Assembly (NCBI RefSeq): GCF_006345805.1
Contig: NC_043017.1
Coordinates: 18,724,001-18,788,000 of the forward strand
Reading direction: 5' to 3'
Length of the DNA: 64,000 nucleotides
DNA from: Octopus sinensis
Taxonomy: Eukaryota
Made by a program: the position numbers and the translations under genes. The notes under the pieces are model-generated. The model saw only the letters and a list, made by a program, of their open reading frames with translations, did no database searches and was not told the DNA's origin. Below, piece by piece: positions 18,321 to 64,000 of this stretch (position 1 is its first letter; every line of letters begins with the position of its first letter).

Positions 18321-19520
18321 TCACAGGGATGTAGATTCTCTCTTGTAATGAATCCGTTTGTGAGTAGTTAAGTTACATTTTTGAGTGAACGACTTGTTAC
18401 AGACATCACACTGGTATCGTTTGTCTCCTGTATGAATACGCTTATGTATATTTAAGGAACTTTTTTCAGAGAATGACTTACCACAGATATCACAGTGGTG
18501 TGGTTTCTCTCCTGTATGTGTAACTTTATGTTTGGTTAAGCTACCACTTAGAGAGAATGATTTACCACAGACTTCACAACTATATGGCTTCTCTCCAGTA
18601 TGAATACGCTTGTGTGTAACTAATTGGCTATTTCCAGAGAATGACTTCCCACAGATATCACAGTGATAGGGCATTTCTCCTGTATGAATACGCTGGTGTA
18701 TATTTAAGGTGCCCTTTCCAGAGAATGATTTACCACAAACATCACAGTGATACGGTTTCTCTCCAGTATGAATACGTTTATGAGAAATTAAGTAACTATT
18801 TCTACAGAATGATTTACCACAGATATCACAGAGATATGGCTCTTCTCCTGAATGGATAAGTTTGTGTGTATCCAAGTTACCTTTTTGAGAGAAAGACTTT
18901 TTACAAATATCACACTGATATGGCATTTCTCCTGTATGAATACGTTTGTGAGTAGTTAAGCTACTACTTACAGAGAAGGTTTTACCACAGATATCACAAT
19001 GATATGGTTCTTCTCCTGTATGAATACGTCGATGAGTAGTTAAGCTACCACTAACAGAGAACGATTTACCACAGATATCACAATGATATGGTTCTTCTCC
19101 AGTATGAATGCGAATGTGAGTAGCTAAGCTACCTTTTTGAGAGAAAGATTTTTTGCATATATTGCAGTTATATGCTTTCTCTCCAGCATGAATACGTCTG
19201 TGAGTTGTTAAGTTACTATTTACAGTGAATGATTTACCACAAATATCACAGTGATATGGCTTCTCTCCTGTATGAATTCGCTTGTGTAAGTTTAAGCCAC
19301 CCTTTTCAGAAAATGACTTACCACAGATATCACAATGATATGGTTTCTCACCTGTATGGATGCGTCTGTGAACAGTTAAGTTACATTTTTGAGAAAATGA
19401 CTTGTTACAGATATCACAGTAATATATTTTTTCTTTCTCTTGTTTTTCCTCAGCAGGTAAATCAAGTCTCTTAGACTGTGGTTCACATTCAAACTTTTTC
19501 TCACATAGTTCATCTTCCAT
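18321..19520 (-). CDS. C2H2 zinc-finger protein ZNF-4, 13 tandem fingers
   Basis: 399-aa ORF. Same C-terminus ([13 protein letters not shown]) as ZNF-2. Confidence 0.96.
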
Positions 19521-21247
19521 AATTTTACATCATTCACCACAAAATACAAATGGTTTTTTTAGTTTTATTTCACTTTTGGATTTGGTTTGCAAGATTCTTC
19601 ATGTGATTTCTTGTGTTGAAGCATATTCTGTTATGTGTGGGGAGAAGTCTTTCTCTTTTACTGCCTTGTAATTTAACACACTCACCAGTAAAATTTCCAC
19701 TTATTTCTTTTTTACTTTTCTAAAATTTTTGTTGCGTCTTGCAATCATTTCAATAATTTTAAAATTTTGCTGTTATATTTTATTCCTCACAAATGTTTCT
19801 TCTGTTATGTTTCTGTCAATTGTGATCTCTGTCAATATTTGAATATGCTGCAAACTTCTTTGCAATCCAAAGTTTAATTAAAACTTGAAATCATCCTGTA
19901 CATATTTCAGAGAACGAAGTAAGGAAATTTTGAAAACTTGTCTCTGTTCAGATCAAATATTTCACAGCAATTCCTGCATAGATTTATACAAACAAGTTTA
20001 TATCTCTTGTGTATAAGACTTTCCTTTCGTCTTTAAAACTTTCTACTATGCCAATGTCATCTGATATTCTGAAATAAAAAGAGAACAAGACATAAAATAT
20101 ACAGGATATTTAAATGAAAAGTAGACATCCAACAGTGGACATTTTATGACATTTCTCACATATATACATATCTATATTCTAATGTGGTGGTGCATTGTGC
20201 TTGTGAGTAAAACTCGTCCTTACACCTTGCCCCAGGCCACTCAGCTGTAAATGGGTAGTTCTGTGACAGACAGGTGTTCCATGTTGGGCCAATGCTGTCC
20301 AGCCCACATGGAGGCATCATTCACAAACTACTACAATGCAAGGAAGTGCACTGTAACCAGCGATGCCTGACAACGTCCAATCGTCTGGTTAATACAGTGA
20401 AATATCCTAATAGAGTAGATGAATGTGACTGCCTTTCCATAACTTCCTCTTTCATGTCAGATACTTTATTTCTTGTGATGGATGTAATTTGGCTGAAGAC
20501 TTTATTTTAGTTTTCATTAATCAATGGCAGCCTGCAGACCAAGTATGGCTAGAAGATGTTGTGGAGCACAATTATACACACACACATGTATATACCTGTA
20601 TTCACATGACAAATGACCGAGACCTTCGGCAATACGCTGAAATCATAGTTGTGGAGATACTGGTGTCCCGCATTGGACTCTTTTTTTATATATAATGTAA
20701 GATTAATTAGATAAAATCATATTTACAGCTGATATACCCTTGTATGTGTTGTGGAGCATAATTATACACACACATGTATATACCTGTATTCGCATGACAA
20801 ATGACCGAGACCTTCAGCAATATGCCCTGCTCGAGTAGAAGACCCAACAAGCCAAGTGAAATCATAGTCGTGACAGATACTGGAGTCACGCAACCGGTAC
20901 ATGTGCTGGTGGCACATAAACGCACCCATTACACTCTCGGAGCGGTTACCATTAGGAAGAGTATCCAGCCGTATAAACTATGTCAAATGAGACTGGAGTT
21001 TGATGCAGCCCTGGTCAAATCGTCCAACTCATGCCAGGTTGGACAGCGGACTTCAAATGATGACGATAATGATATATCATCATCATTTAACGTCCGTATT
21101 CCATGCTGGCATGGGCTGGATGATTTGACAGGATCTGATGCCATGTACACAAATACGATAAGCTCAAGAGGTGCAAGCGCCGGTCCTTAGTCCCTTCTTG
21201 TTTATGATTGTTTTTATGTGCCATAAGAGAGGGGTTTAAGACAGGCT

Positions 21248-30939: not shown

Positions 30940-31718
30940 TTTCTACTATATGTGCAAGGACTAAAATTTTGAGGGAGGGACTCGTCGTCGATTATATCGA
31001 TCCTAGTGTTCAAGTGGTACTTATTCATCGATCACAGTAGGATGAAAGGTGAGTTCGAACTCAGAATGTAGTCAGAAAAAAATACCGCTTAGCATTTTGT
31101 CCGGCGTGCTAACTATTCTGTCAGCTCGTCGTCTTAATAAGGCTTTCTATTTTAAGCCCAAGACCAGAAATTTGAGGAAAGGGGCTAGTCAATTACATCG
31201 ACCCAGTTCTTGGCTGGTACTTTAATTTCCCGATCACTGAGGGATGAGAGTCAAGGTTGATCGCATAGGAATTTTAACTCTGAACGTAATGTCAGAAGAA
31301 ATGCTGTGCCATTGCGATTTCTTCTTGATCACCAACTTCGCCGCTTTAATAATAATAATATCCTTTCTCCTAAAGGCACAAGGCCTGAAATTTGTTGGGA
31401 GTGAACTAGTCAATTACATCGACTCCAGTGTTTCACTGGTACTTATTTTATCAACCCCGAAAGGAGGAAAGGCAAAGTTGACCCAGGCAGAATCTTAATA
31501 ATATCATCTCCAGCAGTAAGGTGGTTACCACTCCGAGGAAAAAAAATGCTTGGCGACATTTCATATTTACGTTCTGGGTTTAAATGCCACCAGCATTGAC
31601 TTTGCCTTTTATCCTTTCAAGGTCGATAAAATAAGTACCAGTTGAGCCCTGGGGTTGATGTAATCAACGAACCCCTTTTCCCCGAACATGCTGGCCTAGT
31701 GCCAAATTTTGAGGCCAA
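30940..31718. mobile_element. Cluster of tRNA-derived SINE fragments, family C (also 46860-47080)
   Basis: Repeated GATTACATCGACCCCAGT..CTGGTACTTATTTTATCGACCCCGAAAGGATGAAAGGCAAAGTC core in both orientations. Confidence 0.75.
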
Positions 31719-32124
31719 TGTAAGATTTAACACTTCCTTCTCTAAGCCTAGATTCGAAACAGTAGTCTGTCGGCACTTCGAACATTTCTCTCTGTCTCTG
31801 TCGTCTGCCAAAAATTTGGGTCGTAGATGGATCTATCTCGTCTGTCTGCTTGCCTCTCTTGTTTCGTCTGGTTTTATAATATTTGTGGCAGCTAGAAAAA
31901 CAGACATACTGCAGCAGAGTTTGTACCTAAATAGGTCAGCGCTTGTCCAGTTGAACTTCGCCTGATGTGGTGAGGTCGCTGGTCAAAGGGAGATCATCAA
32001 TCAAATTTTGACAGGACAGAGAAAACCTTTTTTCGCGGCTGTTGATCGTCGTGGTTTGGACGACCGAGAATTCTTGGATTCGGTTTTGAATCTAGGCTTA
32101 GAGCAGGAAGTGTTAATTCTTACA
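31719..32124. mobile_element. 406-bp non-autonomous DNA transposon, Ginger-like
   Basis: ~40-bp TIRs beginning TGTAAG and ending CTTACA; CCAA direct repeat on both sides. Confidence 0.65.
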
Positions 32125-32469
32125 CCAATATTAACTTCAATATTAATTAAAATTTTTTATTTTTATTTATTCGTTTCCATCATTTTTATACTTTCCCCAT
32201 TGCTTTTTGTGGATCTTTAAATGGAAAAGATCCCTTTTTGTTTCATTTAAATTGACACGTGTTTTTCAGTTTTAAAATAAAGTATTTATTATAATTTCAG
32301 ATTATGCGGTCTATCTGTACAGAGATACACACACATTCATAAACACCAATGCCAGGGAGGTACATTTTCCTAAGCACCTGCAGAAAAAGGTCACCGTGCT
32401 GCTTGGTGATTGCAGACTAGGATATATTTAAAAAGATAAAGAGTTAGTTGTTCTTACAGTTTATTGTTA

Positions 32470-32835
32470 AAACGAACTAAATCTGTTGTTTGATAAACAT
32501 CTTTATTACTGGGTCAGATCTAATTTAAAACTAACATTAGGGGATCCAATTAAATAGAAATGGTTGTTGCTAATGAACTGTGGACAGAAATCGCTTCAAC
32601 GGTCTTTAAGACGATATGAAAATCTAAATGAAGGTTTCTTGTGAAATATAGAAGTTGTGTTGAAGCTGTCATCGTCCTGTCTGACATCTTCGTCATTGGC
32701 TCTGTATTAATATGTAAGTATTATTGATAGAAACAACATCTACGTTGTATAGGTCGTGTCCTCTTTCTACTACATGTGTTTGTTTTGATGTGTTCAAATA
32801 TAAAGGAGAGAGAGAGTGAAGTAAAGAAGAAATTC
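32470..32835 (+). promoter_or_regulatory. Upstream module of ZNF-6 (donor at 32714; acceptor 38277-38278)
   Basis: Long match to 2390-2760, implying an intron of about 5.6 kb. Confidence 0.7.
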
Positions 32836-32970
32836 TGTCGGACATATCGAATACTAACCCACATGCTTATATACTACTAATACAGCCTACACCTATTATC
32901 TATATGCATGCGTGTGTGTGTGTTTGGTAGAACTCAATACATGAATATATTTGTATATAGACGTTTACAC

Positions 32971-33255
32971 AAATATATCAGCATCCTTTCGATATAACTC
33001 GACAAAATCAAAACTTCTGGTATTTCCGCGGAAGCAATTGACAGTTCGATTCTGTTTTCTGCTTGGAAATTTGCAGAATTTACATACACACATGAAACAG
33101 GTAAGAACAAATATGCAAGTCTTTTTTTCCTTCCAGTTTAAAATGAGACATTGCTGGCATAATTTCGTTATATCTATACTCCACAACCCATTGAAATACC
33201 CAAAGTGAAATGTTTTGATTTTGTCGAGTTATATTGAAAGAATGCCAATATATCT
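32971..33255. mobile_element. MITE-like element in ZNF-6 intron
   Basis: ~45-bp imperfect inverted repeats: CTTTCGATATAACTCGACAAAATCAAAAC versus GTTTTGATTTTGTCGAGTTATATTGAAAG. Confidence 0.65.
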
Positions 33256-35688
33256 GTTGTTCAATTGTGTTTTTAATGTTTCAATATTTTCAATCACTGG
33301 TTTTAGATTCTGTGATGGAGTGGAGAATTAATATTGATCTTTGACTAGCAACATCAAAATCACTTAAAATTAGCGATGTTGGACAAAAGTTCGTCAAGTT
33401 TATAAGTCTAGAAATAAACATAAATTGTGATTATACAATGCATTGAAGTGACCTTAAGAAATACTTTCTCTTTGAGTTGATCTTCACATAAGAGGGAATA
33501 ACGATAATTGAAATGGTGAGTGGAAAGAAAAAACAGTGAAAGTATTAAGACAACAATAGGTAATGTCAGTTAAAGCAAGTTTCTCAACTCACATATGTGA
33601 CAGCCAATTGCACGGGATTGACAACATCGTTACTTCAGTAATAATCCCCTGACATATTCAAGTCACACCGTATACATGTCTTTCTTCCGATTACTATTTT
33701 TACATCACACGTTATAGTTTATCTTACCTTTGAATCGCTTCATTTTATTACTGTGTAATAATGTGTATTATTTCAGTGATTAATATGTACCAGTAATGAA
33801 GCTATGTGTATGCTAAACATCATCAGTGGAAGCGTAGACTTCGGTCAATGCCTGTAAATACGAAAACTGTATGGGTATAACTAGAGATTGATGCCCCCGC
33901 ATTCCGAATTTGTTAGAAACTTTTGCAGAAATACATTTTCGAAAGTGGAGATTACAATTATCGTTTGCTTGGACTGTGGCCGTGATGAATCCTGGTACTT
34001 ATTTTAAAGCCTACTGCTTATTCAAATGGTCCGCGAGATTACGGAGACATAAACCAACAAACACCGGTTGTCAAGCAGTGTGGGGACAAAACACAAAGAC
34101 ACACACGCGCGCGCGCGCGGCGGGCGTCTTTAGTTAACGTCTACTAAATTTATTGGTCTGCCCAGGACTATAGAAGACAGTTGGTCAAGGTGCCTCACAC
34201 AGTCTGGTTGAACCGAAGACCACATAGTTGCAAAGCAACCTTCTTAATCACATTGCTACGCTCATAAAATCTAGAAAACCAATTGGGTGAGGGTGGGGGT
34301 TGATTAGGACCATCTACCTTCTTTCTCTCCTACTTTCTAAACATCAATTTCTGTAATGTGAGCAATTTGTCACGTTTTCTTTTTAGATATCCAAAACGTA
34401 TTTCTTTAAAGTGTCATTTAAAGATATTCATTTTAAAGAGAGAGGGAGTTACGACGAAATAGAGTCAGAGTTGGACTAGAATATTCTGAAACACCTCTTT
34501 CTTTACTCTTTTACTCAGTCATGTGACTGTGGCCATGCTGGAGCACCGCCTTTAGTCGATCAAATCGACCCCAGGACTTATTCTTTGTAAGCCTAGTACT
34601 TATTTTATCGGTATCTTTTTGCCGAACCGCTAGGTTACGGGGACGTATACACACCAGCATCGGTTGTCAAGCGATGCTGGGGGGACAAACACAGACACTC
34701 AAACACGCACATACACATATATATATACATATATACGACGGGCTTCTTTCAGTTTCCATCTGCCAAATCCACTCACCTCCCGAATTTTTTTTTTTTGTTA
34801 ATCTTATGAGGCGTGGGCATGGCTATGTGGTCAAGAGGCTCACTTTGTAACCACGTGGTTTCAGGTTTGATTCCACTACTTGGAATCTTAGGCAAGTGTC
34901 TTGTAATACAGCTCTAGGGTGACCAATAGAACTCAAAATATGAGTATATATTTTTATTAATATTTAGCAGAAGCAATAGAGTAACCCAAGGTCCAAGAGT
35001 TTCATGCTTGGCACATATATATAGTTGTGTCTGTTTGTTCCCCACTTGACAATGGTGTCGGTGTATTTACATCTCCATAACTTAGTGGTTTTACAAAGGA
35101 GATGGATAGAATAAGTACCGTGCTTAACAGAAGATAAGTATTGGGATGAATTAATTTGACTAAAAGATTCTCTAGCATGGCCGCAGTGTAATGGTTGAAA
35201 CAAAAGATAGAAAAAGAAGATAAAAAATATCAACATTGGTGAGATAACTTAGCATGGTGATATTTTTCAGGCTGGTATGCGTTAGACGGATTGACCGGAA
35301 CCAGTAAGTCTGAGAACTGTGCCGGGTTCCAGTTTCAGTTTACTTGGTTTCTATGGCTTGATGCCAACTACTTCACAAAAGTATACTGGGTGCTTTTATG
35401 TGTCATCATCATCATTGTTTAACATCTGCTTTCCATGCTGGCATGGGTTGGACAGTTTGACACGGCGCTGGATATCAGGGAGCTGTCCAGATTCCAGCTG
35501 TCTGTTCTAGCATGGTTTCTACAGCCGGATGCCCTTCCTAATGCCAACCACTTTACAGAGTGTGCTGGGTGGTTTTTATGTGCCCCAAGCACAGGTGCTT
35601 GATTGTATGGTAAGAAGTTTGCTTCTCAACCACATGGTTCTGAGTTCAGTCCCACTGCATGACACCTTGGGCAAGTGTCTTCTACTTA

Positions 35689-36239
35689 CGAAGGACGTTC
35701 AATAAGTAATGCCCCTGACCCACTTGCAGTTGTTTGATCTAGCTGAAATTTTGCATGTGCAATTATTTATATCTCTATAGATTAAGTGGCAAATTACAGC
35801 TCTGAACTAATTGTGGTTTCTGATTTACAGGTGTTTGAACTGAGTCAAGTGTGAAATGGAGCCTATTGAGTGTCGAGCAGTGATCCGATTTTTGTATTTG
35901 AAAGGACGCACACCAACGGAGACTTTTGATGAAATGAAAGTAACTTATGGTGATGATGCCCCATCATATGACCTTGTAAAACGCTGGCATCGTGAATTCA
36001 AACATGGTCGGAACTCTGTGAAAACAGCTCCCAGATCTGGTCGCCCTCCTTCTGCCATTGATGAGGCATCTGTCCGTCAGGTTGAGGCTACCATTTTAGA
36101 AGATCGACACATAAGTATACGCCAAATAGACCATGAGGTCAAGATTAGTACTGGGTCTGTGGAAACTATCATTCATGACCATTTGCATATGCAAAAGGAG
36201 CCTGACGGATGGACTAAACTGGATACTGCTAGCAATTAA
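35689..36239 (+). mobile_element. 3'-truncated mariner element (5' TIR plus transposase HTH domains, ORF 35856-36239)
   Basis: TA|CGAAGGACGTTCAATAAGTAATG TIR; ORF with RAVIRFL, VKRWHREFK, PRSGRP, SVETIIHDHL; ends before the WVP linker and DDD domain. Confidence 0.9.
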
Positions 36240-38584
36240 ACCCAAAACCCCAGTATTTCTATTAAATTGTTGGATTATAAATGACAAGCATTAATTAATA
36301 AATATTAATTACTAACATTGGCTCAAGGCCACACATTTTGGGGAAGTTCTGGATGGATTCAATCTACAACAAACAAAGTAGTACGAAAGATAAAGACCAA
36401 TGTAGTGGGATTTGAACTGAGAACATAAATGGATGTAACTTAATACCAAACATGCTACCCACCACCCATAAATGGTTGAGAGCAGTGTTAATGTAGCTTC
36501 TTTGGTAACAAAACAAGACTTTCGTCTTGTTGATGGAAATATACCAGTAATACTTTCCAGTTGACAGGAACACAATTTATAATTAATGGACATAAGGACA
36601 ACAACTTCACTATGAATTTACTTGTAGATGTAATCTTCTCTGTAAATTCTTACTATTCAATACAAGACATCTGGATGAATGACTCTACCATATTGTTATG
36701 TTAGATATGAAGACAGTCTCAGTGATAGACCAGTTAGTGTTATAAGGTCTCTCTTCCATATTCCTCTAATGTCATCAATCTCTGCCACTCAGTAACTCCT
36801 CTTGGAGACATCCACCCTGATGTAGATATATGTACAGTCGTGTTGCTTTCATATAATTATATATTGTTGTGTAACACATTTCATTTAAAGGGGGGACTAT
36901 TTCATTGCTTTCTGGTGTAGTAGTGTTTTATTGACAGCCTGTATAGAATAAGGAAACAAGAACTGATATAATGATAGTTTCCCTGTTTACAGAGTGAGAC
37001 GTCATGATAAGACTATTTATTAAGGGACACATTTGGTTGTTGAGGAAAGTTTCTTTTTTTTTTCTTTTTGATATTATTTGAATACAGTCAAAAGTTTAAC
37101 CATTTACTTATCATATTTCTGTTGCAAAACACTGCTTGTCTTTAAATCAATTTTGAAAATGATGAAAAATTTACTAAAAATAACTTTATCATTACTAAGT
37201 TAGTGTCTGGAACATAAATTAACTTGAAATTTTGATGTAAAGTTTTAATTTAGATCACTTTAACCTTTATCTTACCATATTTTTGTTAGAATGCACTACT
37301 GTTCTTTCAATTAATTTTGAAAATAACGAGGAAGTTATTAAAATAAGATGATTGTGAATAAATTGGGGACTGCTCTTCTTTCAACCATGTTGCATTAAAA
37401 ACTTGCCTATGTTTCTATTTTATTTAGTATGTGTCACATCTTCCCCTTTAGTCCTTCCTGTTTACTTTCGAACAGTATCATTCCTGAGTCCATTAACATT
37501 AAAACCTTAGCCTCATCATCTGAATGAAATGGTGGTAATTCTGACAAGTTCATGCAGTTTGCAGCAGCCTACAAAAGATCACAAAATAATTTTATTATTA
37601 ATATCAATGCTGCATTTAAAATCATTCTGTGGTATATTTCATCGTTTATTTCACATGTGGTGCCTTGGTTTGTTAAAGTTCCATCATTAATCTTCTTGTT
37701 TTTGATGTAATTCTGTATAAATATTGTTGTGTTGTTGTTGACTAAGGTTTTCTTTCGAATTTTATTTTATGTACTGAATATGAGGAATTATGATGGTTTT
37801 GTGTTTTGAATTCAAAAAGTGACATAATTAAATGTCTTGTAGAAAAGTTTGAGACTTGAAGGCAATAACTTTGCGATTTTTGTTACTGGTGACAGGCAAA
37901 GCGTTAAGGTTAAAAGCAAACCAAAAATTAACCCAATACTACAGCACTGGCCTATAAAAAGATATATGGAAGGCAGCAATATTTATCTACTTCATATGAT
38001 ACACCATAGAAGCTAATTTTTGTGATGGATAAGAAACAGACACTTTCAGATAATAACTGGCTGATGACATTCACCAGCAGATGTAACAATAACTTGGATG
38101 TCTGCAATTAAGTGGCTCCCACTGTGTATACAACTTTTAGTCATGAAAAGGGCTGAAAGTGTTAAATGAGCTCCATTGTTCATGTAAATGTTTATATATA
38201 CAGTTTATTAATATAGAAGAAATGCACTAGAATGTCCACTTTTTAAGTATGTTTTATATTGTTTCTCTTTTATTTCAGGATATCATATCACATTGGCATA
38301 AAAGAATATTTTACTTTTGTGTCATCTTTTAAAGAAGATAGAGAGCAGATATAACCCTCATTGCATAAATCTATGGTAGAATTACTGTGAAGCATTTGCC
38401 GTGAACTGAGATTAGTTTTCAAAGCTTCCCTACTTCACTTTGGATTACAAAAGAGTTTGCAACATCTTCAAAATTGACAAATGTTGTAGCAAATGTATGT
38501 ATTGCGGAAGAAATAATTATTAACAATAAACTAAAAACTAAAAGAAGGGAAACCTTTGTGTATTGTGGTGAGAGACAAAAAATT

Positions 38585-39769
38585 ATGGAAAATGAGTTCA
38601 GTGAAAACAATATTGAATGTGAAACAGAGTCGAAGAGGATTGATTTTCCTAATGATAAAAAGAAAAAGAAAGATAAAATACATCAGTGTGATATCTGTAA
38701 AAAGTCATTCTCTGGAAAAAGTAGCCTAACTGCCCATAAACGCATTCATACAGGAGAAAAGCCATACCATTGTGATGTCTGTGGTAAATCATTCTCTGTG
38801 AATAGTGCCTTAACTTCTCACAAACGTATCCATACAGATGAGAAGCCATATCATTGTGATATCTGTGGGAAATCATTCTCTCAAATAAGTAACTTAACTA
38901 CTCACAAACGTGTTCACACAGGAGAGAAGCCATATCAGTGTGAGATATGTGGTAAATCATTCTCTGTAAGTAGTGCTGTAAATTCTCACAAACGTGTTCA
39001 TACAGGAGAGAAACCAAATCACTGTGATATCTGTGGTAAATCATTTTCTGTAAGTAGCCACTTGACTATACACAAACACATTCATACAGGGGAGAAGCCA
39101 TACCAATGTGATTTATGTGGTAAATCATTCTCTGTAAGTAGTGCTGTAAACAAACACAAACGTATTCACACAAGGGAAAAGCCATATCACTGTAATATCT
39201 GTGGTAAATCATTCATTCAGTTGAGTCACTTAACAACACACAAACTTATTCATACAGGAGAGAAGCCATATCATTGTGATATTTGTGGCAAATCATTCTC
39301 TGGAAGTAGTGAATTAACTATGCATAAACGTATTCACACAGGACAGAAGCCATATCACTGTAGTATCTGTGGTAAATCATTCTCTCAAAATAGTCATTTA
39401 ACTAAACACATACGTGTTCATACTGGAGAGAAACTATATCACTGTGATATTTGCAGTAAATCATTCTCTCAAAAAGGCAATCTGATTATTCACAAGCACG
39501 TCCATGAAGGTGAAAAACCATATCACTGTGATATCTGCGGCAAATCATTCTCTGGAAGCAGTTACTTAACTTCTCATAAACGCATCCATACAGGTGAGAA
39601 ACCTTACCATTGTAATATCTGTGGGAAATCATTTTCTCATAGTGGTAACATAACCATTCACAAACGTATTCATACAGGAGAAAAGCCATATCACTGTAAT
39701 ATCTGTGGTAAATCATTTTCTCAAAGAAGTAATTTGGCTACACATGTAGGTATTCATATACAACAATGA
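38585..39769 (+). CDS. C2H2 zinc-finger protein ZNF-6, 13 tandem fingers
   Basis: ATG at 38585 (MENEFSE) aligns with paralogs; 13 fingers. Confidence 0.95.
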
Positions 39770-46657: not shown

Positions 46658-47083
46658 GGGGAGAAAGAGAGAGTGTGCCTCTTACACATAGATGACAATA
46701 CACATGTTCACTCACTTACACGCACTCTCTCTCAAACACACACACATGCACACAAAAAGGATGTATGCATATGTAATGATGTATGTATGTATACATGACA
46801 ACACACCCCTTCACTCACTCACTCTCTTTCACACACACATCCATTTCATATACACGTACCTATTTCTTTATTACCCACAAGGGGCTAAACATAGAGGGGA
46901 CAAACAAAGACAGACATAGGTATTAAATTGATTACATCAACCCCAGTGCGTAACTGGTACTTAATTTATCGACCCCGAAAGGATGAAAGGCAAAGTCGAC
47001 CTCGGCGGAATTTGAACTCACAACGTAACGGCAGACGAAATACGGCTACGCATTTCGCCCGGCGTGCTAATGTTTCTGCCAAA

Positions 47084-47400
47084 GGCAACATCGTTACTTT
47101 AGGAAGATTTCTTTTTTTCTTCACTTTCTTTCCATAATCTTTGAACACATCAAAACAAACAGATGTAGAAGAAAGAGGACACGACCTATTCAATGTAGAC
47201 GTTATTTCTGTTAATAATACTTACATATTAATATAGAGCCGATGACGAAGATGTGATAGATTCAAGTAGTCGCAACTCAGACTGGACAATGACAGCTTTG
47301 ACACAACTTCTATATTTTACAACAAACCTTCATTCAAATTTTTCACATCGACATAATAAAGAATGTTGTAGCTATTTCTTTCCTCGGTTAATTAGCAATC
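47084..47400 (-). promoter_or_regulatory. Upstream module of ZNF-7 (donor at 47224; acceptor 46435-46434)
   Basis: Reverse-complement match to the family module. Confidence 0.7.
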
Positions 47401-49204
47401 ATCTATCAACCGACGTCTTCGATGTATAATTAAGACACACCAAAGTGAGGGAGGTGCATTTTTCAGTGATGTTAAAAAAAATGCACTTCCCACATATTGG
47501 TTTATCTTTATTATTTGAATTTGATAAAATTATTGTTTTTGTTGTTGTTATTGTTATTATTATTATTGTTATTGTTATTATTATTATTATTATTATTAAA
47601 ATTGGGGAAAACAAATTCTTTTACAACACTTATGGTTTGTGAGAAGAGACACTTTAGGTGTTTGGAGGTTTTGAAAAAGGAAACCCTTTGGAAAATGTTT
47701 CCTAGTGTAAATGGTTAATTACAAAAGAGGTAGCGTGGCACCTTGGGCAAGTGTCTTCTACTATGGCCTCGGGCCAACCAAAGCCTTGTGAGTAGATTTG
47801 GTAGATGGAAACTGAAAGAAGCCCATGTATATATACATATGTGTGTGTTTGTGTGTTTGTCTCCCCAAAGTCGCTTGACAACTGATGTTGGTTTGTTTAC
47901 ATCCCCACAACTTAGCGGTTCAGCAAAAGAGAGAGAATAAGTACTAGGCTTACAAAGATTAAGTCCTGGGGTCGATTTGCTCGACTAAATGCGGTGCTCC
48001 AGCATGGCTACATTCAAATGACTGGAAAAGGTGAAGGAATAGGGTATTCCTTTCATTACTGACACATAACAGCATAAAACTAACATTTTGTTTTTCTTTA
48101 ACATTTTTACAACATAAAACAAACGATATTTTTTATTTTATTCCAGTCATTAGAGCATGGCCATGCTGGGGCACTGCTTTGAAAGGTTTTATAGAACAAA
48201 TTGACCCCTATATAGATATTCTTTAAATACCTATTCTATTCGACTCCATACGCCGAACTGCTAATGGGGACATGAACAGACCAGCACTAGTTGTCAAGTG
48301 GTGGGGATGAACAAATACAAAGACACATACACTTATGTATTTATATGATGGGCTTCCACACAGTTTCCATCAACCAAATTCACTCTTAAGGCATTGGTCA
48401 ACCTGGGACTACATTAAAAATAACTCAACCTAGGTGCCTTACCAGGGGATTGAACCTAATACCCATGGTTACAATGCAAGCTTCTTAACCACACTACCAT
48501 ACCTGTACCTACATGCAAACATTTGAATATTTAATCTCCCTTTCCTCCATCACACATGATAGTTTTTTTCTCAGTCTCCTAACCAACAAACATGTAGCTG
48601 CCATTACTGTCTCACTTCCATTACTTCTTACTGTTTCCCCTATCATACTCTCTCTTTGATCACTCTATCACACTATTTCTCCCACTATTTTTCTCCGCCA
48701 TCATTTTCTCTCATTATATCTCCCATCATACTCTCTCCTCCATCACTCCCTCTTACTGTTTCTCTCATCATACTCTCTCTAATTCTCCTATCATACTCTC
48801 TCCTCCCTTGCTCAGTTTCTCCCATCATACTTTTTTTTTTGACACATTGCCTTGAATTGAATGGAAATGGCACAGAAAAGCAAGGAGTTTTTAATCTTGG
48901 TAGGAAAGAAGGTAATCTCATTGTTGCTGGTGTTAAGGAAGGAACTTAACCATAGAAATCACACCAGCACTTGGAGCATTCGAACAAGATGTGCTCTCCA
49001 CCCATAGAGGAGTGGAATAATTCTGAACAAAAAATATCTTGGATTGTGACAACCTATCCAGCACAAGCCAACATGGAAACCAGATGTAAAGTGATTGTGC
49101 TATTTGGTGTAATGATGGTTTCTTTTTTAACTTTGTTTATTTCATTCTAACATAATAACCACAGTGATTTATGAGAATACATATTTCTGACATGATAACT
49201 CTCA

Positions 49205-53939: not shown

Positions 53940-54330
53940 CATTGTCAGCTAAAGCAAGTTTTTCGACTCGCTTCTATTACATATGCGGCAGCCTACCGTA
54001 TGCGGATTAAGGCAACATCGTTACTTTAGGAAGATTTCTTTTTTTCTTCACTTTCTTTCCATAATCTTTGAACACATCAAAACAAACAGATGTAGAAGAA
54101 TGAGGACATGACCTATTCAATGTAGACGATGTTTCTGTTAATAATACTTACATATTAATATAGAGCCGATGACGAAGATGTGATAGATTCAAATAGTCAC
54201 AGCTAAGACTGGACAATGACAGCTTTGACACACATTCTATATTTTACAACAAACCTTCATTTAGATTTTTCACATCGACATAATAAAGAATGTTGTAGCT
54301 GTTTCTTTCCTCGGTTAATTAGCAATCATC
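53940..54330 (-). promoter_or_regulatory. Upstream module of ZNF-8 (donor at 54151; acceptor 52045-52044)
   Basis: Reverse-complement match to the family module; near-identical to the ZNF-7 copy. Confidence 0.7.
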
Positions 54331-57300
54331 TATCAACCGACGTCTTCGATGTATAATTAAGGCACACCAAAGTGAGGGAGGTGCATTTTTCAGCGCTATA
54401 AAAAAAACAACAAAAAGAACTTCCCTCACATTGGTATATCTTGTTTCATTTTGATGAGGAAACTTATTGTTATGGACAATGGACGGCATGAGTTAAAATA
54501 AGAACAGTAATAAGCGAGTGAAGAACGAATATTTAGTGTGTTTATTTGGTAAAAAAAACAAAAATGACCGTCTCGAAAAAGAATATCAGTTTCAGGAATC
54601 TTACAACTCAAATTCATTATTATTATATGAGATCAAGTTCTTTAACCACACTAATGATTAGGGGTGAGAGACACGTTAGGTGTTTGGTGGTTTCGAAAGA
54701 CGAAACCTTTGTAAATGTTTCAGTGATCACTCGAGTTGCTAGAAATAGCAGTCAAATTTCCTGCGAAGTACAGCATATTATATTGCGTGTACTGCTGTCC
54801 TTCCATACTTGCTACCGTTGTTTGTTACTCGATTTCTCTCTCTCACACACACACATACACACAAAAGTATCACATCGTAATCGATCGAGTGATCATTGCT
54901 AAACTCAAACTCCTTTTTGTGCCGATTTCTCACTCTGATGAAATATTCAACTCACAATATTCAAAATGCATCTTTGATTTATTATTTGTAATTTGAATGA
55001 ATTGAATATGCAATAGGTAATTTGAAATTGACATTATGTTAATCAATTGATATTTAACTATCGATCTCTCCATTTTCTTCTTATCCTATACACACACACA
55101 CACGAGAAGCGCATCATCATCATCATTTAATGTCCGCTTTCCATGCTGGTATGGATTGGACGGCTTGACTGAGAACTCGCAAGCCAGAGGCTGTACCAGG
55201 CTCCAATCTGATCTGGCAGTGTTTCTACAGCTGGATGCCCTTCCTAACGCCAACCACTCCAAGAGTGTAGTGGGTGCTTTTTACGTGCCACCGGCATGAG
55301 GGCCAGTCAGCTAGTACTGGCATCAACCATGCTTGATGGGAGCCAGTCAGGTGTGATGTTGTTGTGGAAAGTGACAGATTATTAACTATTATCTTAATAC
55401 AATATATTGTGATATTATCAGGTGTAATTAGTGTCATTGATTAACGACTGAGTTCATATCTTTCCAATCAGCTTCTTTGCCCTACTGGAGTAGCCAAATA
55501 TTTTCTGGAAAAACCAAAGTTGCTGGGGCCATGCAAAAAAAGGCCTTGTTCCAGACCCATGCTAATGCCACATAAAGAAGTGCACATGCTGGAGCCACAT
55601 AAGACATCATTCATGCCAGCACCAAGCACACTTTGTAGTGGTTGGCTTTAGGAAAGGCATCCAGCCAAAAGACCTTACTAAAACAGATGAGTGGAAGCTG
55701 CTGCATCCTGTCAAACCCATGTATAGAAAGCAGACATTAAATGATGACGATGATGATCAAACACACACACATACATAGTAGGTGAGTTGGGATAAAATAA
55801 TCCAACAGTTTACATTGAGAAGCACTTCCATGGACAGTGGCTATCTGAAAATTGTAACGGAGATATTCCTTATAAACTGTTGTTCCCAATAAACAAAATC
55901 CACAAACCACTTTTCTGTCGCAGAGTATAAATAAAAATTAAAGACTGAAGTTAGCAGAATTATTTTTATTTCATAGTTTACAATTGTTTCAACAACTCCA
56001 TTGTCAATAACCTTGCATCATGCTTAGAAACATGTCCATAATTAATGATTTGGTCATATATGCTGTGCAATTTATGATCCAGAGAAATTGTTTCTTCAGA
56101 AGTTTTTATAAAAGAATATAATGAAGCAATTGATTATTTTTGCTTAAACATGGGATAATCAGCAACATTTATAGCAGGAAGGACTAAGATTTATAATTTT
56201 ATGTGGAAAATGACAAGAAAAAATAAGAAAGAAAGAAAGCTTTCGGCTCTGTTCAGCCTTCACTGGATAATCCTCAAGTGCTAATCCTTCACTAGATAAT
56301 CCTCAAGTGCTAATCAGATCTGCTGCTCAAGACAATTCCATGGTATCAAAATATTTTCATGTCACCTTAGTGGTGTTTTGTCATTAGTATGTTATATCTC
56401 TACTAAGTTAACTTTACGGCTCTTTCATTCTAGGCTTACTTTCATATCTGGAATTTCTTTCCTAATACCACTACAGATTCAGCTATAGGAACAAGGTCAT
56501 TAACATACAGGAGTTTCTATGGACAATTGAACTTAACCACCTCCATTACAGCCTGAAGCATTAAAACAAACATAAGGTAACTGAGAATCAAGCCTGGCTC
56601 AATTCCTTTACATATATATCATACCATAATAAAATTTGAACCAGAATCCTCACAAAATACATGAAATAATGTATAAAAGATCCACAACATACATAATGAT
56701 ATAAATGAAATATTTTCTTTTATGGTTTCTGTATTTATTTCTTACCTAATAACTGTACATGGCTTATGAGAATAGATTTCTCAGTTATTTACCCACAATG
56801 TCAAATAAATTGATTGCATCTCTACTCTCATTAGATGGAAAACATAAATATTCTGAAAGAATATTTTTATTGAAGGTATCGCCATAGTTATTTACTTCAC
56901 CAATACTTGATGCAGGGGTTATATAAAACAAAGTGTTTGGAAATTGTTATCACAATATATCTTCTTTGATATGTGGAATACATTTATTCTCATAATATTT
57001 GTTTCATACAAATTCCAGATGCTAAGCCTCACAGAGGAAATAACAAGGGAGCAGGAGTTGGGGTGATTTGTTTAACATCTGTTTTTCATGCTGGCATGGA
57101 CTGGACGGTTTGACTGAGGTCTGGAGAGCCAGTGGCTGCACCAGGCTCCAATCTGATCTGTGTATGAATATGTAAATTTGTAGTTAAGGGACCTATTCAA
57201 GAGAATTACTATAAAAATCAATGAAATTGGTTTCTCACCTGTATGAATACACCTGTGTACATTTAAGGCAACCTTTTTTTAGACAACTGCTATAGAAACC

Positions 57301-57385: not shown

Positions 57386-58453
57386 CTATTTCTTTTCTCT
57401 TGTATGAATATGTTTATGAGTAAATAAGGTACCACTTTCAGAGAATGACTTATCACAAATATCACAGTGATATGGTTTCTCTCCTGTATGTGTACGTTTG
57501 TGAGTAATCAAGGTACTATTTCCAGAGAATGATTTACCACAGATATCACAGTGATATGGTTTTTCCCCAGTATGAATACGTTTATGAGAAGTTAGGTTAC
57601 CATTTTTAGAGAATGATTTACCACAAATATCACATTGATATGGTTTCTCTCCAGTATGAATACGTACATGTTTAGTTAAGTCACCATTCTGAGAGAAAGA
57701 TTTACCACAAATATCACAGTGATATGGCTTCTCTCCTGTATGAATACGTTTATGATTACTTAGGTGACCATTTTCAGAGAATGATTTACCACAGATATCA
57801 CAGTAATATGGTTTTTCTCCAGTATGAAGCCGTTTGTGTATAGTTAGGGTTGTGCAACGTGAAAATGATTTACCACAGATATCACACTGATATGGCTTCT
57901 CTCCCATATGAATACGATTGTGAGTAGTTAAACTCTCATTTTGAGAGAATGATTTACCACAGATATCACAATGATATGGTTTTTCTCCTGTATGAATACG
58001 TCTGTGTGCAGTTAAGCTGCTACTTTGAGAGAATGCTTTACCACAGATATCACAATGAAATGGTTTTTCTCCTGTATGAATACGTCTGTGTGCAGTTAAA
58101 CTACCATTCTGAGAGAACAATTTACCACAGATATCACAGGAATATGCTTTCTCTCCTGTATGAACGACTTTGTGAGAAGCTAAAGTATCACTTCGAGAGA
58201 ATGATTTACCACAGATATCACAGTAAAACGGTTTCTCTCCTGTATGAATGAATTTGTGAGAAGTTAAAACATCATTTCTGTTAAATGATTTACCACAGAT
58301 ATCACAATGATATGGTCTCTCCCCTGAATGAATGCGTTTGTGAGTAGTTAGGTTGCTTTTCTGAGAGAATGACTTTTTACAAATATCACATTTATGCAAT
58401 GGCCTTCCATTCTCTTTCTTTTGAACTTTGTCCTCACAGAATTCAGTTTCCAT
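57386..58453 (-). CDS. C2H2 zinc-finger protein ZNF-9, 12 tandem fingers, shortened leader
   Basis: 355-aa ORF. The stop falls inside a linker (TREKK*HCDIC). Confidence 0.95.
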
Positions 58454-59059
58454 AATTTTTCATGTCTCACCACGAATATTCCTTCCACTGTATTTCCTTC
58501 AATTGTGATTTTCTGTCAATATGTGAAGATGCTGTAAATTTACTAGGAATCTGAGTTTAATTAGACAATAAATTCATTTTGTATATATTTCTGACAATGA
58601 AGTAACGCTATTCTGCAATCAGTTTCAGTTCACAGCAAATATTTCATGGTGATTCTACCACAGATTTATATAAACAAAGTTTATATTTGTTCTGTATGGC
58701 ATTTCCTTTTAGTCATTAAAAAGTGATAAATATTGACGGGTCTGGAGTAAATAATTCTTTTATGCCAATGTAATTTGATAATCTGAAATAATAAAGAAAT
58801 AGAAAATATAGAGGATACTTAAAAAGTAGGCATTCAACTGACACTTTACTACATTTCTTCTATATTGATAAAACTTTATTTGACAAACGATCTTCTCCCG
58901 TTTCAAGACTTATACATAAAGGTAACAGAGAAGGTAAATCATCTCGGCAGTATTTTTGCAAATTTTTTCTGTGTGTTGATATTAAGATATGAGGGAATAA
59001 AGATAACTGAAATGGAATGTGGAAAGGAAAACGGGGAAGATATGAAGACAACCATAGGT

Positions 59060-59340
59060 AATGTCAGTTAAAGCAAGTTTTTCAACTAACAGACTACGGC
59101 ATAGGAATTAAGACAGCATCGTTACTTTAGGAAAATTTCTTCTTCACTATCCTTCTTTTATCCTTGAACACATCAAAACAAAAGGATGTAGTAGAAAGAG
59201 GACACGACCTATACAATGTAGACGTTGTTTCTCTCCAGAATACTTACATATTAATATAGAGCCAATGACGAAGATGTCGTGATAGATTCAAGTAGTCACA
59301 ACTCAGACAGGACAATGACAGCTTCAACAAACCTTCGTTT
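59060..59340 (-). promoter_or_regulatory. Upstream module of ZNF-9 (donor at 59247; acceptor 58784-58783)
   Basis: Reverse-complement match to the family module; shortest intron (about 465 bp). Confidence 0.7.
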
Positions 59341-59906
59341 ATACCAGTATTTGGCCAACACTGCTGGGGTACAGTGAACGATTTATAAAAGAAATAGTGA
59401 ATAGTTTTTTTTTTTAGTGGTTGTCTCTTATTCAAATATTAACTTTAAAATGATTTTAAATGTGAAATATTATAGTAAACTGCACGTTACCCCCACAATC
59501 GCGACAACAATAATAAGTCTGGGTGAAACCCTGATTCGAATATATGTGTCAATAATGAAACTGAAGCGGTGTCATTAAAGAGTAGGTCCAGTAGTAAAAT
59601 AGTACCCCGCGTTAAACTAGTTCCCAAAACTAAATTACACCGTCCTGATATTACATGAAAAAGTTTTAAAAGGTATATTTCGAAACCTTTGGATCTTTTC
59701 ACTTTCAAAGCCTGTTCTTTCAAATTTTTCCTACTGAACCAAACAATTTGAAACTTCGTATACTGGTAGAATGTGTCAAAAGAAAACATAATTGTAAACC
59801 AGAATGAAAAAGGAATTGTAATTTCAAGATCCGGGGAAAGTATAAAAATGATGGAAACGAATAAATAAAAATTAAAAATTTTAATTAATATTGAAGTTAA
59901 TATTGG

Positions 59907-60308
59907 TGTAAGAATTAACACTTCCTTCTCTAAGCCTAGATTCGAAACCGAATCCAAGAATTCTCGGTCGTCCAAACCACGACGATCAACAGCCGCGAAA
60001 AAAGGTTTTCTCTGTCCTGTCAAAAATTGATTGATGATCTCCCTTTGACCAGCGACCTCACATCAGGCGAAGTTCAACTGGACAAGCGCTGACCTATTTA
60101 GGTACAAACTCTGCTGCAGTATGTCTGTCTTTCTAGCTGCCACAAATATTATAAAACCAGACGAAACAAGCGAGGCAAGCAGACAGACGAGATAGATCTA
60201 TCTACGACCCAAGTTTTGGCAGACGACAGAGACAGAGAGAAATGTTCGAAGTGCCGACAGACTACTGTTTCGAATATAGGCTTAGAGAAGGAAGTGTTAA
60301 TTCTTACA
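59907..60308. mobile_element. Copy of the Ginger-like element inside the duplication
   Basis: TGTAAGAATTAACACTTCC...GGAAGTGTTAATTCTTACA, flanked by TTGG and CTGG. Confidence 0.65.
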
Positions 60309-62460
60309 CTGGTTTCAAATTTTGGCACAGGGCCAGCATGTTCGGGGAAAAGGGGTTCGTTGATTACATCAACCCCAGGGCTCAACTGATACTTATTTTA
60401 TCGACCTTGAAAGGATAAAAGGTAAAGTCAATGCTGGTGGCATTTAAACCCAGAATGTAAATATGAAATGTCGCCAAGCATTTTTTTCCTCAGAGTGGTA
60501 ACCACCTTACTGCTGGAGATGATATTATTAAGATTCTGCCTGGGTCAACTTTGCCTTTCCTCCTTTCGGGGTTGATAAAACAAGTACCAGTGAAACACTG
60601 GGGTCGATGTAATTGACTAGTTCACTCCCAACAAATTTCAGGCCTTGTGCCTTTAGGAGAAAGGATATTATTATTATTATTAAAGCGGCGAAGCTGGTCA
60701 TTAGGAAGACATCGCAATGGCACAGCATTTCTTGTGACATTACATTCAGAGTTAAAATTCCTATGCAGCATTGATATTAATAATAAAATTATTTTGTGAT
60801 CTTTTGTAGGCTGCTGCAAACTGCATGAACTTGTCAGAATTACCATCATTTCATTCAGATGATGAGGCTAAGGTTTTAATGTTAATGGACTCAGGAATGA
60901 TACTGTTCGAAAGTAAACAGGAAGGACTAAAGGGGAAGATGTGACACATACTAAATAAAATAGAAACATAGGCAAGTGTTTAATGCAACACGGTTGAAAG
61001 AAGAGCAGTCCCCAATTTATTCACACACATCTTATTTTAATAACTTCCTCGTTATTTTCAAAATTAATTGAAACAACAGTAGTGCATTCTAACAGAAATA
61101 TGGTAAGATAAAAGGTTAAAGTGATCTAAATTAAAACTTTACATCAAAATTTCAAGTTAATTTATGTTCCAGACACTAACTTAGTAATGATAAAGTCATT
61201 TTTAGTAAATTTTTCATCATTTTCAAAATTGATTTAAAGACAAGCAGTGTTTTGCAACAGAAATATGATAAGTAAATGGTTAAACTTTTGACCGTATTCA
61301 AATAATATCAAAAAGAAAAAAAAGAAACTTTCCTCAACAACCAAATGTGTCCCTTAATAAATAGTCTTATCATGACGTCTCACTCTGTAAACAGGGAAAC
61401 TATCATTATATCAGTTCTTGTTTCCTTATTCTATACAGGCTGTCAATAAAACACTACTACACCAGAAAGCAATGAAATAGTCCCCCCTTTAAATGAAATG
61501 TGTTACACAACAATATATAATTATATGAAAGCAACACGACTGTATATATATCTACATCAGGGTGGATGTCTCCAAGAGGAGTTACTGAGTGGCAGAGATT
61601 GATGACATTAGAGGAATATGGAAGAGAGACCTTATAACACTAACTGGTCTATCACTGAGACTGTCTTCATATCTAACATAACAATATGGTAGAGTTCATC
61701 CAGATGTCTTGTATTGAATAGTAAGAATTTACAGAGAAGATTACATCTACACAAGTAAGTTCATAGTGAAGTTGTTGTCCTTATGTCCATTAATTATAAA
61801 CAGTTTGTGTTCCTGACATCTGGAAAGTATTAGCGATATATTTAGAACAACATGACCAGAGTGAAACTTCATTACAAACTCAAACACTATTCTTAAGTGA
61901 AGGAGAACAGAGCTGCCATTAAGTTTGAAGAATATGGAAGGGAGACTTTATAACACCAACTGGTCTATCACTGAGACTGTCTTCATATCTAACATAACAG
62001 TAGAGTCATTCATCCAGATGTGACTGCAATGTCTTGTATTGAATAGTAAAAATTTCCAGGGAATATTACATCTACACAAGTAAATTAGCAATGAAGGTTT
62101 TGTCCTTATGTCCATTAATTATAAATTGTTTGTGTTCCTGACATCTGGAAAGTATTACTGGTATATTTCCATCAACAAGACCAAAGTCTTGTTTTGTTAC
62201 CAAAGAAGCTACATTAGCTCTCTACCATTTATGGGTGGTGGATAGCATGTTTGGTATTAAGTTACATCCATTTATGTTCTCAGTTCAAATCCCACTACAT
62301 TGGTCTTTATCTTTCGTACTACTTTGTTTGTTGTAGATTGAATCCATCCAGAACTTCCCCAAAATGTGTGGCCTTGAGCCAATGTTAGTAATTAATATTT
62401 ATTAATTGATGCTGGTCATTTGTAATCCAACAATTTAATAGAAATACTGGGGTTCTGGGT

Positions 62461-63011
62461 TTAATTGCTAACAGTATGCAGTTTAGTCCATCCGGCAGGT
62501 TCCTTTTGCATATGCAAATGGTCATGAATGATAGTTTCCACAGACCCGGTGCTAATCTTGACCTCATGGGCTATTTGGCGTATACTTATGTGTCGATCTT
62601 CCAAAATGGCAGCCTCAACTTGACGGACAGATGCCTCATCAATGGCAGAAGGGGGGCGACCAGATCTGGGAGCTGTTTTCACAGAGTTCCGACCACGTTT
62701 GAATTCACGATGCCAGCGTTTTACAAGTTCATATGATGGGGCATCATCACCATAAGTTACTTTCATTTCATCAAAAGTCTCCGTTGCTGTGCGTCCTTGC
62801 AAATACAAAAATCGGATCACTGCTCGACACTCAACAGGCTCCATTTCACACTTGACTCAGTTCAAACACCTGTAAATCAGAAACCACAATTAGTTCAGAG
62901 CTGTAATTTGCCACTTAATCTATAGAGATATAAATAATTGCACATGCAAAGTTTCAGCTAGATCAAACAACTGCAAGTGAGTCAGGGGCATTACTTATTG
63001 AACGTCCCTCG
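62461..63011 (-). mobile_element. Copy of the truncated mariner element inside the duplication (ORF 62461-62844)
   Basis: 127-aa ORF with the same truncation point and flanks as 35856-36239. Confidence 0.9.
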
Positions 63012-64000
63012 TAAGTAGAAGACACTTGCCCAAGGTGTCATGCAGTGGGACTGAACTCAGAACCATGTGGTTGAGAAGCAAACTTCTTACCATACAATCA
63101 AGCACCTGTGCTTGGGGCACATAAAAACCACCCAGCACACTCTGTAAAGTGGTTGGCATTAGGAAGGGCATCCGGCTGTAGAAACCATGCTAGAACAGAC
63201 AGCTGGAATCTGGACAGCTCCCTGATGGCCAGCGCCGTGTCAAACTGTCCAACCCATGCCAGCATGGAAAGCAGATGTTAAACAATGATGATGATGACAC
63301 ATAAAAGCACCCAGTATACTTTTGTGAAGTAGTTGGCATCAAGCCATAGTAACCAAGTAAACTGAGACTGGAACCCGGTACAGTTCTCAGGCTTACTGGT
63401 TCCGGTCAATCCGTCTAACGCATACCAGCCTGAAAAATATCACCATGCTAAGTTATCTCACCAATGTTGATATTTTTTATCTTCTTTTTCTATCTTTTGT
63501 TTCAACCATTACACTGCGGCCATGCTAGAGAATCTTTTAGTCAAATTAATTCATCCCAATACTTATCTTCTGTTAAGCACGGTACTTATTCTATCCATCT
63601 CCTTTGTCAAACCACTAAGCTATGGAGATGTAAATACACCGACACCATTATCAAGTGGGGAACAAACAGACATAACTATATATATGTGCCAAGCATGAAA
63701 CTCTTGGACCTTGGGTTACTCTATTGCTTCTGCTAAATATTAATAAAAATATATACTCATATTTTGAGTTCTATTGGTCACCCTAGAGCTGTATTACAAG
63801 ACACTTGCCTAAGATTCCAAGTAGTGGAATCAAACCTGAAACCACGTGGTTACAAAGTGAGCCTCTTGACCACATAGCCATGCCCACGCCTCATAAGATT
63901 AACAAAAAAAAAATTCGGGAGGTGAGTGGATTTGGCAGATGGAAACTGAAAGAAGCCCGTCGTATATATGTATATATATATGTGTATGTGCGTGTTTGAG

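Follow-up and report, generated by a model that had tools for sequence, protein, structure and literature searches.

The window analysed here is a stretch of 64,000 bp from the genome of Octopus sinensis (assembly GCF_006345805.1, contig NC_043017.1, hereafter C21, positions 18,724,001 to 18,788,000) which holds a series of C2H2 zinc-finger (ZNF) genes and, between the 5' ends of two of them, a rearranged copy of DNA from upstream of the paralogue ZNF-6. Gene numbering follows a preliminary description of the window; the next ZNF gene after ZNF-9, which stands head-to-head with it, is named ZNF-10. Positions on C21 outside the window continue its numbering, with values below 1 on the left and above 64000 on the right. 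The region compared side by side around the window comprises 604 kb with 40 C2H2 zinc-finger arrays and contains no N gaps. Whole-genome searches covered the 2.72-Gb assembly, from which alone all structure was read. We designate the two halves of the donor segment X and Y, a family of miniature inverted-repeat transposable elements (MITEs) M, and its collapsed member next to the copy M' (Table 1).

Table 1. Coordinates of the donor, the copy and neighbouring features, in window numbering
Feature	Position	Strand	Remarks
Donor half X	31263..32198	+	Distal ZNF-6 upstream DNA; short interspersed nuclear element (SINE)-like repeats and a small inverted-repeat element at 31719-32125
Opening point	32203..32241	.	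Target-site duplication (TSD) 32203-32210; 23-bp remnant with both M termini 32211-32233; TSD 32234-32241
Donor half Y	32249..37615	+	ZNF-6 promoter-proximal DNA, putative 5' exon, most of intron
Deletion in copy, 1,142 bp	donor 33542..34683	+	Repeats continuous in the donor are cut at both breakpoints
M' (collapsed M)	59691..59832	.	137 bp of one end, exact terminus at 59691, then 5-7 terminal bases, then the copy
Copy of X	59833..60766	-	Reverse complement of donor 31263-32198, 96.1%; 29 substitutions/931 aligned bases
End-to-start fusion	60763..60766	.	ATGC, equal to GCAT at both 31263-31266 and 37612-37615; 4-bp microhomology
Copy of Y	60763..64000 and on to extended 65280 (C21:18789280)	-	In-window part corresponds to donor 34698-37615
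Two ~320-bp tandem units, 83% alike	61590..62200	-	Donor has one chimeric unit; third copy, extended 92008-92712, has two
Mariner transposase N-terminal fragment, passive cargo	35856..36239; copy 62461-62844	+; copy -	PF17906 HTH_48, E 2e-10 and 1e-11
Putative 5' non-coding exon of ZNF-6 (element A)	32600..32719, start approximate	+	Splice donor GTAAGT at 32714
ZNF-9's own putative 5' exon	59242..59340	-	Intact donor GTAAGT at 59247
ZNF-6 coding exon	38279..39769	+	Acceptor 38278/38279; open reading frame (ORF) 38585-39769; 13 fingers; outside copied DNA
ZNF-9 coding exon	57386..58782	-	Acceptor 58783/58782; ORF 58453-57386; 12 fingers
ZNF-10	68294-69817 (extended)	+	Next gene; 5' end head-to-head with ZNF-9

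The permuted copy and its donor

The DNA at 59833-65280 is a closed, inverted circular permutation of the ZNF-6 upstream segment 31263-37615. Sequence alignment confirmed the arrangement reported for the end of the window, where the minus strand copies 34698 to 37615 and then returns to 31263 and runs to 32198, the ends of the segment being fused at 4 bp. In the window the copy of Y aligns with the donor at 96-97% BLAST identity in two blocks, the interruption being caused by a second ~320-bp tandem unit which the copy has kept and the donor lost. Past the window the match extends as far as 64014, which corresponds to donor 34684; donor 33542-34683 is then missing, and a further block at 64017-65280 matches donor 33541-32249 at 96.8%, after which homology ends. 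A circle had been predicted to show itself by a stop of homology at about 32199, and the stop was found at 32249, within 50 bp of that position; nowhere does homology pass 32199 or 31263, as it would in a larger inverted duplicate. The ends of the copy correspond to donor 32198 and 32249, which lie 50 bp apart in the donor, and the permutation is thus closed. The copy measures 5,448 bp and the donor 6,353 bp, and the two are separated by 22,218 bp. Genome searches with the three junction regions yielded no further copies of them (counts are lower bounds).

Polarity can be read from interspersed repeats. Among repeat matches in the 604 kb that extend 25 bp or more to either side of the point in question, 33 cross donor position 31263 and none crosses the fusion; in addition, a 70% homologue on contig C4 extends ~45 bp beyond donor 37615. 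Thus, the segment 31263-37615 served as the donor, and the junction at GCAT arose in the copy, in line with the original proposal that the source was ZNF-6 upstream DNA free of any coding exon. The same repeat continuity rules out the reverse polarity, with the second locus as donor and GCAT as a target duplication.

Copy and donor differ by 79 substitutions in 4,852 aligned bases (1.6%), of which 49 are transitions, and derived changes relative to a third copy are present on both (3 and 4). The donor lost one ~320-bp unit, because a third copy of this region (extended 92008-92712) has both. Conversely, the 1,142-bp gap is a loss in the copy, because at both of its breakpoints the copy has truncated repeats that run uninterrupted in the donor; a later insertion of donor 33542-34683 is ruled out on the same grounds. 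This deletion and two microhomology deletions of 8 and 22 bp in the copy are all confined to the 1.3 kb next to the right junction. X also harbours a small MITE-like element at 31719-32125 (copy 59906-60309) which is bounded by 42-43-bp inverted repeats.

Transposon M at the opening point and the left junction

Three features had been overlooked in the preliminary description: the 1,142-bp deletion in the copy, the remnant of a transposon within the 50-bp gap, and an element of the same family at the left junction. The remnant lies within donor 32199-32248, the 50 bases that are missing from the copy, and its TSD matches at 8 of 8 positions. Beside it the copy has lost 12 bases on the X side, including the TSD, and 14 on the Y side. 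At the left junction, 59691-59827 belongs to a high-copy repeat with at least 39 other loci among the matches listed (92-97% identity), M' showing 4-8 differences over 135-137 bp from 11 family copies. The sequence that follows the 137-bp match diverges from the family at all 11 other loci fetched, and positions 59828-59832 are terminal bases of M joined directly to the copy.

M is non-coding, mostly 1.06-1.2 kb long, and has inverted ends of ~100 bp that are ~86% alike and start with GGATC. All ten two-ended loci start with GG and end with CC; an exact 8-bp TSD surrounds seven of them, and a 7/8 match one more. Pairwise divergence among eight M copies averages 2.2% (range 1.0-3.9%), a range that includes the 1.6% between the duplicated segments, so M was active around the time of the duplication. 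For a remnant of M to fall in the 50-bp gap and an end of M to lie at the junction as well, the probability by chance is ~4e-6 (a rough, post hoc estimate from 10 exact terminal 10-mers in 604 kb). Thus, M almost certainly took part in the duplication event.

Elements of the Merlin superfamily have terminal inverted repeats (TIRs) with a terminal 5'-GG-3' and TSDs of 8 or 9 bp (PMC8101967). By its ends and the length of its TSD, M looks Merlin-like. An 8-bp TSD is also typical of hAT and P elements, and with no M ends around the 45 Merlin loci examined the superfamily assignment is a lead only. The genome contains at least 150 matches to Merlin-type transposase (PF12762, DDE_Tnp_IS1595). Its Merlin elements are numerous, with open frames of ~300-350 aa and several types of TIR, some having long tandemly repeated TIRs and TSDs of 8 or 9 bp.

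Remnants consisting only of the tips of GGATC-ended elements are found genome-wide, with 66+74 strand matches as against 1+3 for a control pattern, several related families being included in these figures. Among 18 such remnants fetched, 11 retain at least 7/8 of the TSD and seven do not. Tip-only remnants being abundant and some having lost the TSD, collapse of the element and loss of flanking bases are ordinary for such elements. The remnants are 18-43 bp long, many with an intact 8-bp TSD; they may record the excision or repair pattern of the family and offer a lead on how GGATC-ended elements break or excise.

The left flank of the insertion has a sole paralogue at 85356-85586, which runs into other sequence. 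For the right flank (65281-65690), the 604 kb gave no match, and a single 59-bp match of 83% was found on contig C14. The 10 bp shared by donor 32195-32204 and 65297-65306 were considered as a templated insertion but are probably due to chance: they lie inside the C14 match, and 1.2% of 1,500 random 40-mers do equally well (post hoc).

Proposed routes to the permuted copy

Taking into account both the permutation and the traces of M, we propose, with a probability of about 0.4, that a tandem duplication created an M-Y-X-M composite transposon which hopped 27 kb by cut-and-paste, became inverted and left a remnant at the donor. In this scheme the donor would initially have been X-M-Y with a full-length M. 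Tandem duplication at GCAT, the junction of which is preserved in the copy, would have produced X-M-Y-X-M-Y. Transposase would then have excised M-Y-X-M by acting on the outermost terminus of each M copy, upon which the donor would have re-closed as X-remnant-Y and the excised DNA would have landed in inverted orientation between ZNF-9 and ZNF-10, whose 5' ends face each other. Subsequently, the left M would have shrunk to the present 142 bp with 12 flanking bases gone, and the right M would have disappeared, along with the target duplication and 14 bases of the flank. The private deletions that each copy displays would have accrued thereafter. A single composite event of this kind would account for the donor remnant at the opening point, the swapped order, the existence of two copies, the exact terminus at 59691 and the short distance, and would require no circle. 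Tandem duplicates with a period of 1.4-6 kb are present in the same 604 kb.

Macrotransposons of maize, which excise with a footprint and reinsert, offer a parallel: two copies of an Ac/Ds element, with 8-bp TSDs, can move the DNA between them to a nearby site and carry regulatory DNA along (PMC9910405). By contrast, the two copies in octopus would stem from tandem duplication of one element, so that the moved DNA is permuted; moreover, only one end survives, there is no TSD pair, and the element is Merlin-like rather than hAT.

Several observations weigh against the composite transposon. The tandem stage itself is unobserved. Two hallmarks, a same-family element at the donor breakpoint and a 4-bp internal microhomology, are present, but an exact terminus exists at the left end only and no TSD surrounds the whole insert: no M sequence was found at or past the right junction, and the 8-mer to the left of M' has no match of at least 7/8 within 65260-65700. 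With the right M and the TSD absent, an extra loss must be assumed. No empty site was seen, the insertion flanks being unjoined in every paralogue found. An autonomous partner did not emerge from a search confined to the Merlin superfamily, as M ends bound the transposase at none of 45 loci examined of the at least 150, and 22 Merlin ORFs gave zero tblastn matches with eight M copies. None of three other tip-only remnants, picked for low repeat content from the 11 with a TSD, lies at the centre of a duplication. Finally, divergence is uneven along the copy, ranging from 0.4 to 3.1% (X, 29/931; proximal Y with the 0.4% block at donor 32249-35000, 5/1,260; distal Y, 35/1,825 and 10/836; chi-square p = 7e-6), which the composite model leaves unexplained, and proximal Y has seven small indels despite its low substitution count. 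This pattern could in part reflect gene conversion, a mosaic allelic template or constraint. On balance, the copy was likely made by a composite route, but we do not class it as a member of the composite transposons.

Alternative transposition in S phase offers another route, which we regard as unlikely though by no means far-fetched. The ends of M on sister chromatids, or a single end, would insert in inversion orientation into unreplicated DNA 27 kb away; the forks would re-replicate ~0.95 kb of X and 5.4 kb of Y and abort, and the broken ends would join at GCAT, with neither a tandem stage nor a free circle. In our reconstruction this yields the same topology, and a mechanism that acts in cis agrees with the small separation of donor and copy. 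Participation of a single end would leave the right end bare and the Y end trimmed, both of which are observed, and the deletions of 8, 22 and 1,142 bp near the right junction, found in the copy only, are such as error-prone synthesis might leave. Composite Insertions of maize likewise join both donor flanks end-to-start at a few bp of microhomology, insert in cis near a paralogue and may carry enhancers (PMC4270019; bioRxiv 10.1101/2020.08.10.245175), the microhomologies at their internal junctions being of 3, 4 and 9 bp (PMC4270019). However, the maize cases need two separate elements whose ends are in reversed orientation, and they keep both transposon termini and a TSD (PMC4270019), whereas the octopus locus has one donor element, one end and no TSD. 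A change of expression was shown in maize, as opposed to the structure alone that is read here. The inverted form with a single element is thus an extrapolation from these cases.

It is rather unlikely that a true X-M-Y circle closed at GCAT and was then opened and integrated by transposase, with one M end joined to the target and the freed Y end trimmed and end-joined. The block order is the signature of circular intermediates (PMC7450558, PMC7188851), and the segmental duplications ascribed to circular DNA in these sources share with the octopus copy the swapped order, a short microhomology at the fusion and small losses at the opening point. A circle opened in this way would also account for the absent right M and for the similar trimming of 12 and 14 bp at the two ends. 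It demands, however, that the donor kept its segment and that the M within it collapsed separately, and it leaves unexplained by itself why the landing site lies 22 kb away in a 2.7-Gb genome.

A very unlikely possibility is homology-driven integration or gap repair between the donor M and an M pre-existing at the second locus, similar to SVA-flanked lcr16a or to the gap filling of Pack-TIR elements. Like the lcr16a duplicate, the octopus copy is permuted and has one transposon family at the opening point and the insertion site (PMC9132208), and gap filling in animal Pack-TIRs, where TIR elements are tied to duplication of nearby DNA with microhomology junctions, is biased towards cis (PMC8277862). 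Yet such a mechanism predicts elements on both sides and donor TSDs at both inner boundaries. In the SVA case the duplicate has a retrotransposon on either side, with TSDs of the donor at the inner boundaries and those of the target at the outer ones, whereas here a DNA transposon is found on one side, and the right element and the inner TSDs are gone. The DNA captured by animal Pack-TIRs lies between the halves of one element; here it lies outside M', permuted around the donor element. The nearest related end (70144-70282) is only ~77% alike and has no matching TSD, which also rules it out as the partner of M'.

The preliminary description had proposed a possible circular intermediate, read here as a passive extrachromosomal circle reopened at a random point. 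The permutation behind that proposal is real, but an excised circle is not singled out by it: the M remnant at the opening point and the M end at the insertion point to a transposase-started event that has no need of a free circle. Tilapia vasa is another locus that is reportedly grouped with circular-DNA-mediated duplications. A passive circle agrees with the permutation and the 4-bp microhomology, as in the human, cattle (including KIT) and fish cases cited in PMC7450558, but it would make the pieces of M coincidental, at odds of ~4e-6, and we consider it highly improbable. The 16 cases of PMC7450558 span 22 kb to 3.9 Mb, and their breakpoints are reported to be without homology or inverted repeats within 500 bp; here, 6.35 kb was copied 22 kb away, and the absence of breakpoint homology and inverted repeats does not hold, with a TIR remnant at the opening point and an end of the same family at the insertion. 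Least probable of all is an assembly artefact: tandem duplicates of ~1.5 kb at extended -25250 to -22157 (100% identical, 22-25 kb left of the window) and -158547 to -155619 (98.9%) are recent duplications or artefacts, so artefacts may exist in the region, but the 79 substitutions with 49 transitions, the derived changes on both copies, the private deletions in each, the junctions at transposon termini and the absence of N gaps speak against one here.

It is very probable that one or other of the transposon-linked readings holds, and the event is likely better seen as transposon-driven than as the product of a passive circle. Swapped block order is widely taken as proof of an extrachromosomal circle; the same signature can likely also result from tandem duplication combined with composite transposition, or from alternative transposition. 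Looking for a transposon at the opening point is a cheap check that can be applied to published circle cases.

Putative 5' exons and a possible movement of regulatory DNA

Element A, a conserved element with a splice-donor motif, is likely a 5' non-coding exon. It is located upstream of one subfamily of ZNF modules and occurs in 15 copies in the 604 kb, all of which have the donor motif and 14 the same sense as the next ZNF array; genome-wide, 27 of 33 matches are on C21. The putative exon carried by the copy is intact, with GTAAGT at 64821 beyond the window, on the minus strand and in the sense of ZNF-9, and 5 substitutions in the 1,260 bases around it. Its donor lies ~5.6 kb upstream of ZNF-9's own exon and 6.0 kb from the acceptor at 58782.

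ZNF-9 had been suggested to have captured regulatory DNA of ZNF-6 at a distance of ~0.5 kb in the same sense. Sense and integrity of the copied exon make this idea possible in structural terms, but the DNA at ~0.5 kb from ZNF-9, next to its promoter region, is X, the distal, repeat-rich half, and ZNF-9 keeps an intact putative 5' exon of its own. The promoter-proximal half now lies 1.3-1.9 kb from the 5' module of ZNF-10, and the insertion has pushed the head-to-head pair ZNF-9/ZNF-10 ~5.6 kb apart. Capture of a promoter or 5' exon by ZNF-9 is possible, and the second 5' exon could give this gene an alternative upstream start.

It is tempting, although quite doubtful in all its parts taken together, to speculate that a Merlin-type MITE in an animal germ line, acting as a composite or by alternative transposition, moved a permuted 5' module between ZNF paralogues and thereby gave ZNF-9 a second start that is used. 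If so, duplication signatures ascribed to circular DNA could arise from cut-and-paste transposons without a circle, and such elements would rewire zinc-finger clusters. The event is a single one: among 30 repeat pairs of at least 88% identity and at least 400 bp in the 604 kb with its 40 ZNF arrays, shorter and older pairs being filtered out, four are permuted, all at this locus. Permuted duplicates as such are already known, as are composite insertions that move enhancers (bioRxiv 10.1101/2020.08.10.245175), hybrid-end events (PMC3744419, PMC12312487) and TIR-linked duplication in animals (PMC8277862). A literature search found no permuted duplicate from a cephalopod and none with a Merlin-like element at its opening point, which is a weak negative as one query was loose and subscription journals lay outside its coverage; the available passages of a paper on cephalopod C2H2 expansions contain neither 'promoter' nor 'exon' (PMC12513265). 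The locus also represents a datable case, testable by polymerase chain reaction, in which a 5' exon module passed from one paralogue to another within an expanded cluster of C2H2 genes.

Permutation may not be the sole route by which 5' ends are shuffled. The 5' modules of ZNF-7 and ZNF-8 are 95.5% identical (381/399) versus 80% for the acceptor and coding start, and those of ZNF-6 and ZNF-10 95% (145/152) versus 79%, which suggests that 5' modules were exchanged by conversion. Modules that are 91-95.5% alike between ZNF genes include 47082-47481 and 54009-54407, and 32620-32790 and extended 66555-66754; further ones lie at extended 99319-99798, 107473-107970 and 113313-113692, and a copy at 113455 has no ZNF in the same sense downstream. 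With acceptors and coding starts ~80% alike where compared, these modules suggest conversion or copying of 5' ends on repeated occasions. Relative to the paralogues, in which it comes after the putative 5' exon, a conserved block at ~33266-33644 has the reverse orientation in ZNF-6 and the copy, likely as a result of a small older inversion; a 46-bp inverted repeat (32969-33014 and 33212-33257) lies near this block in ZNF-6. An older, colinear inverted duplicate of 86-87% identity (3280-5576 and 18468-20740) links ZNF-2 and ZNF-4. Between two head-to-head ZNF 5' modules, extended 82688-84580 contains an intact ORF of 630 aa, the start of which looks transposase-like.

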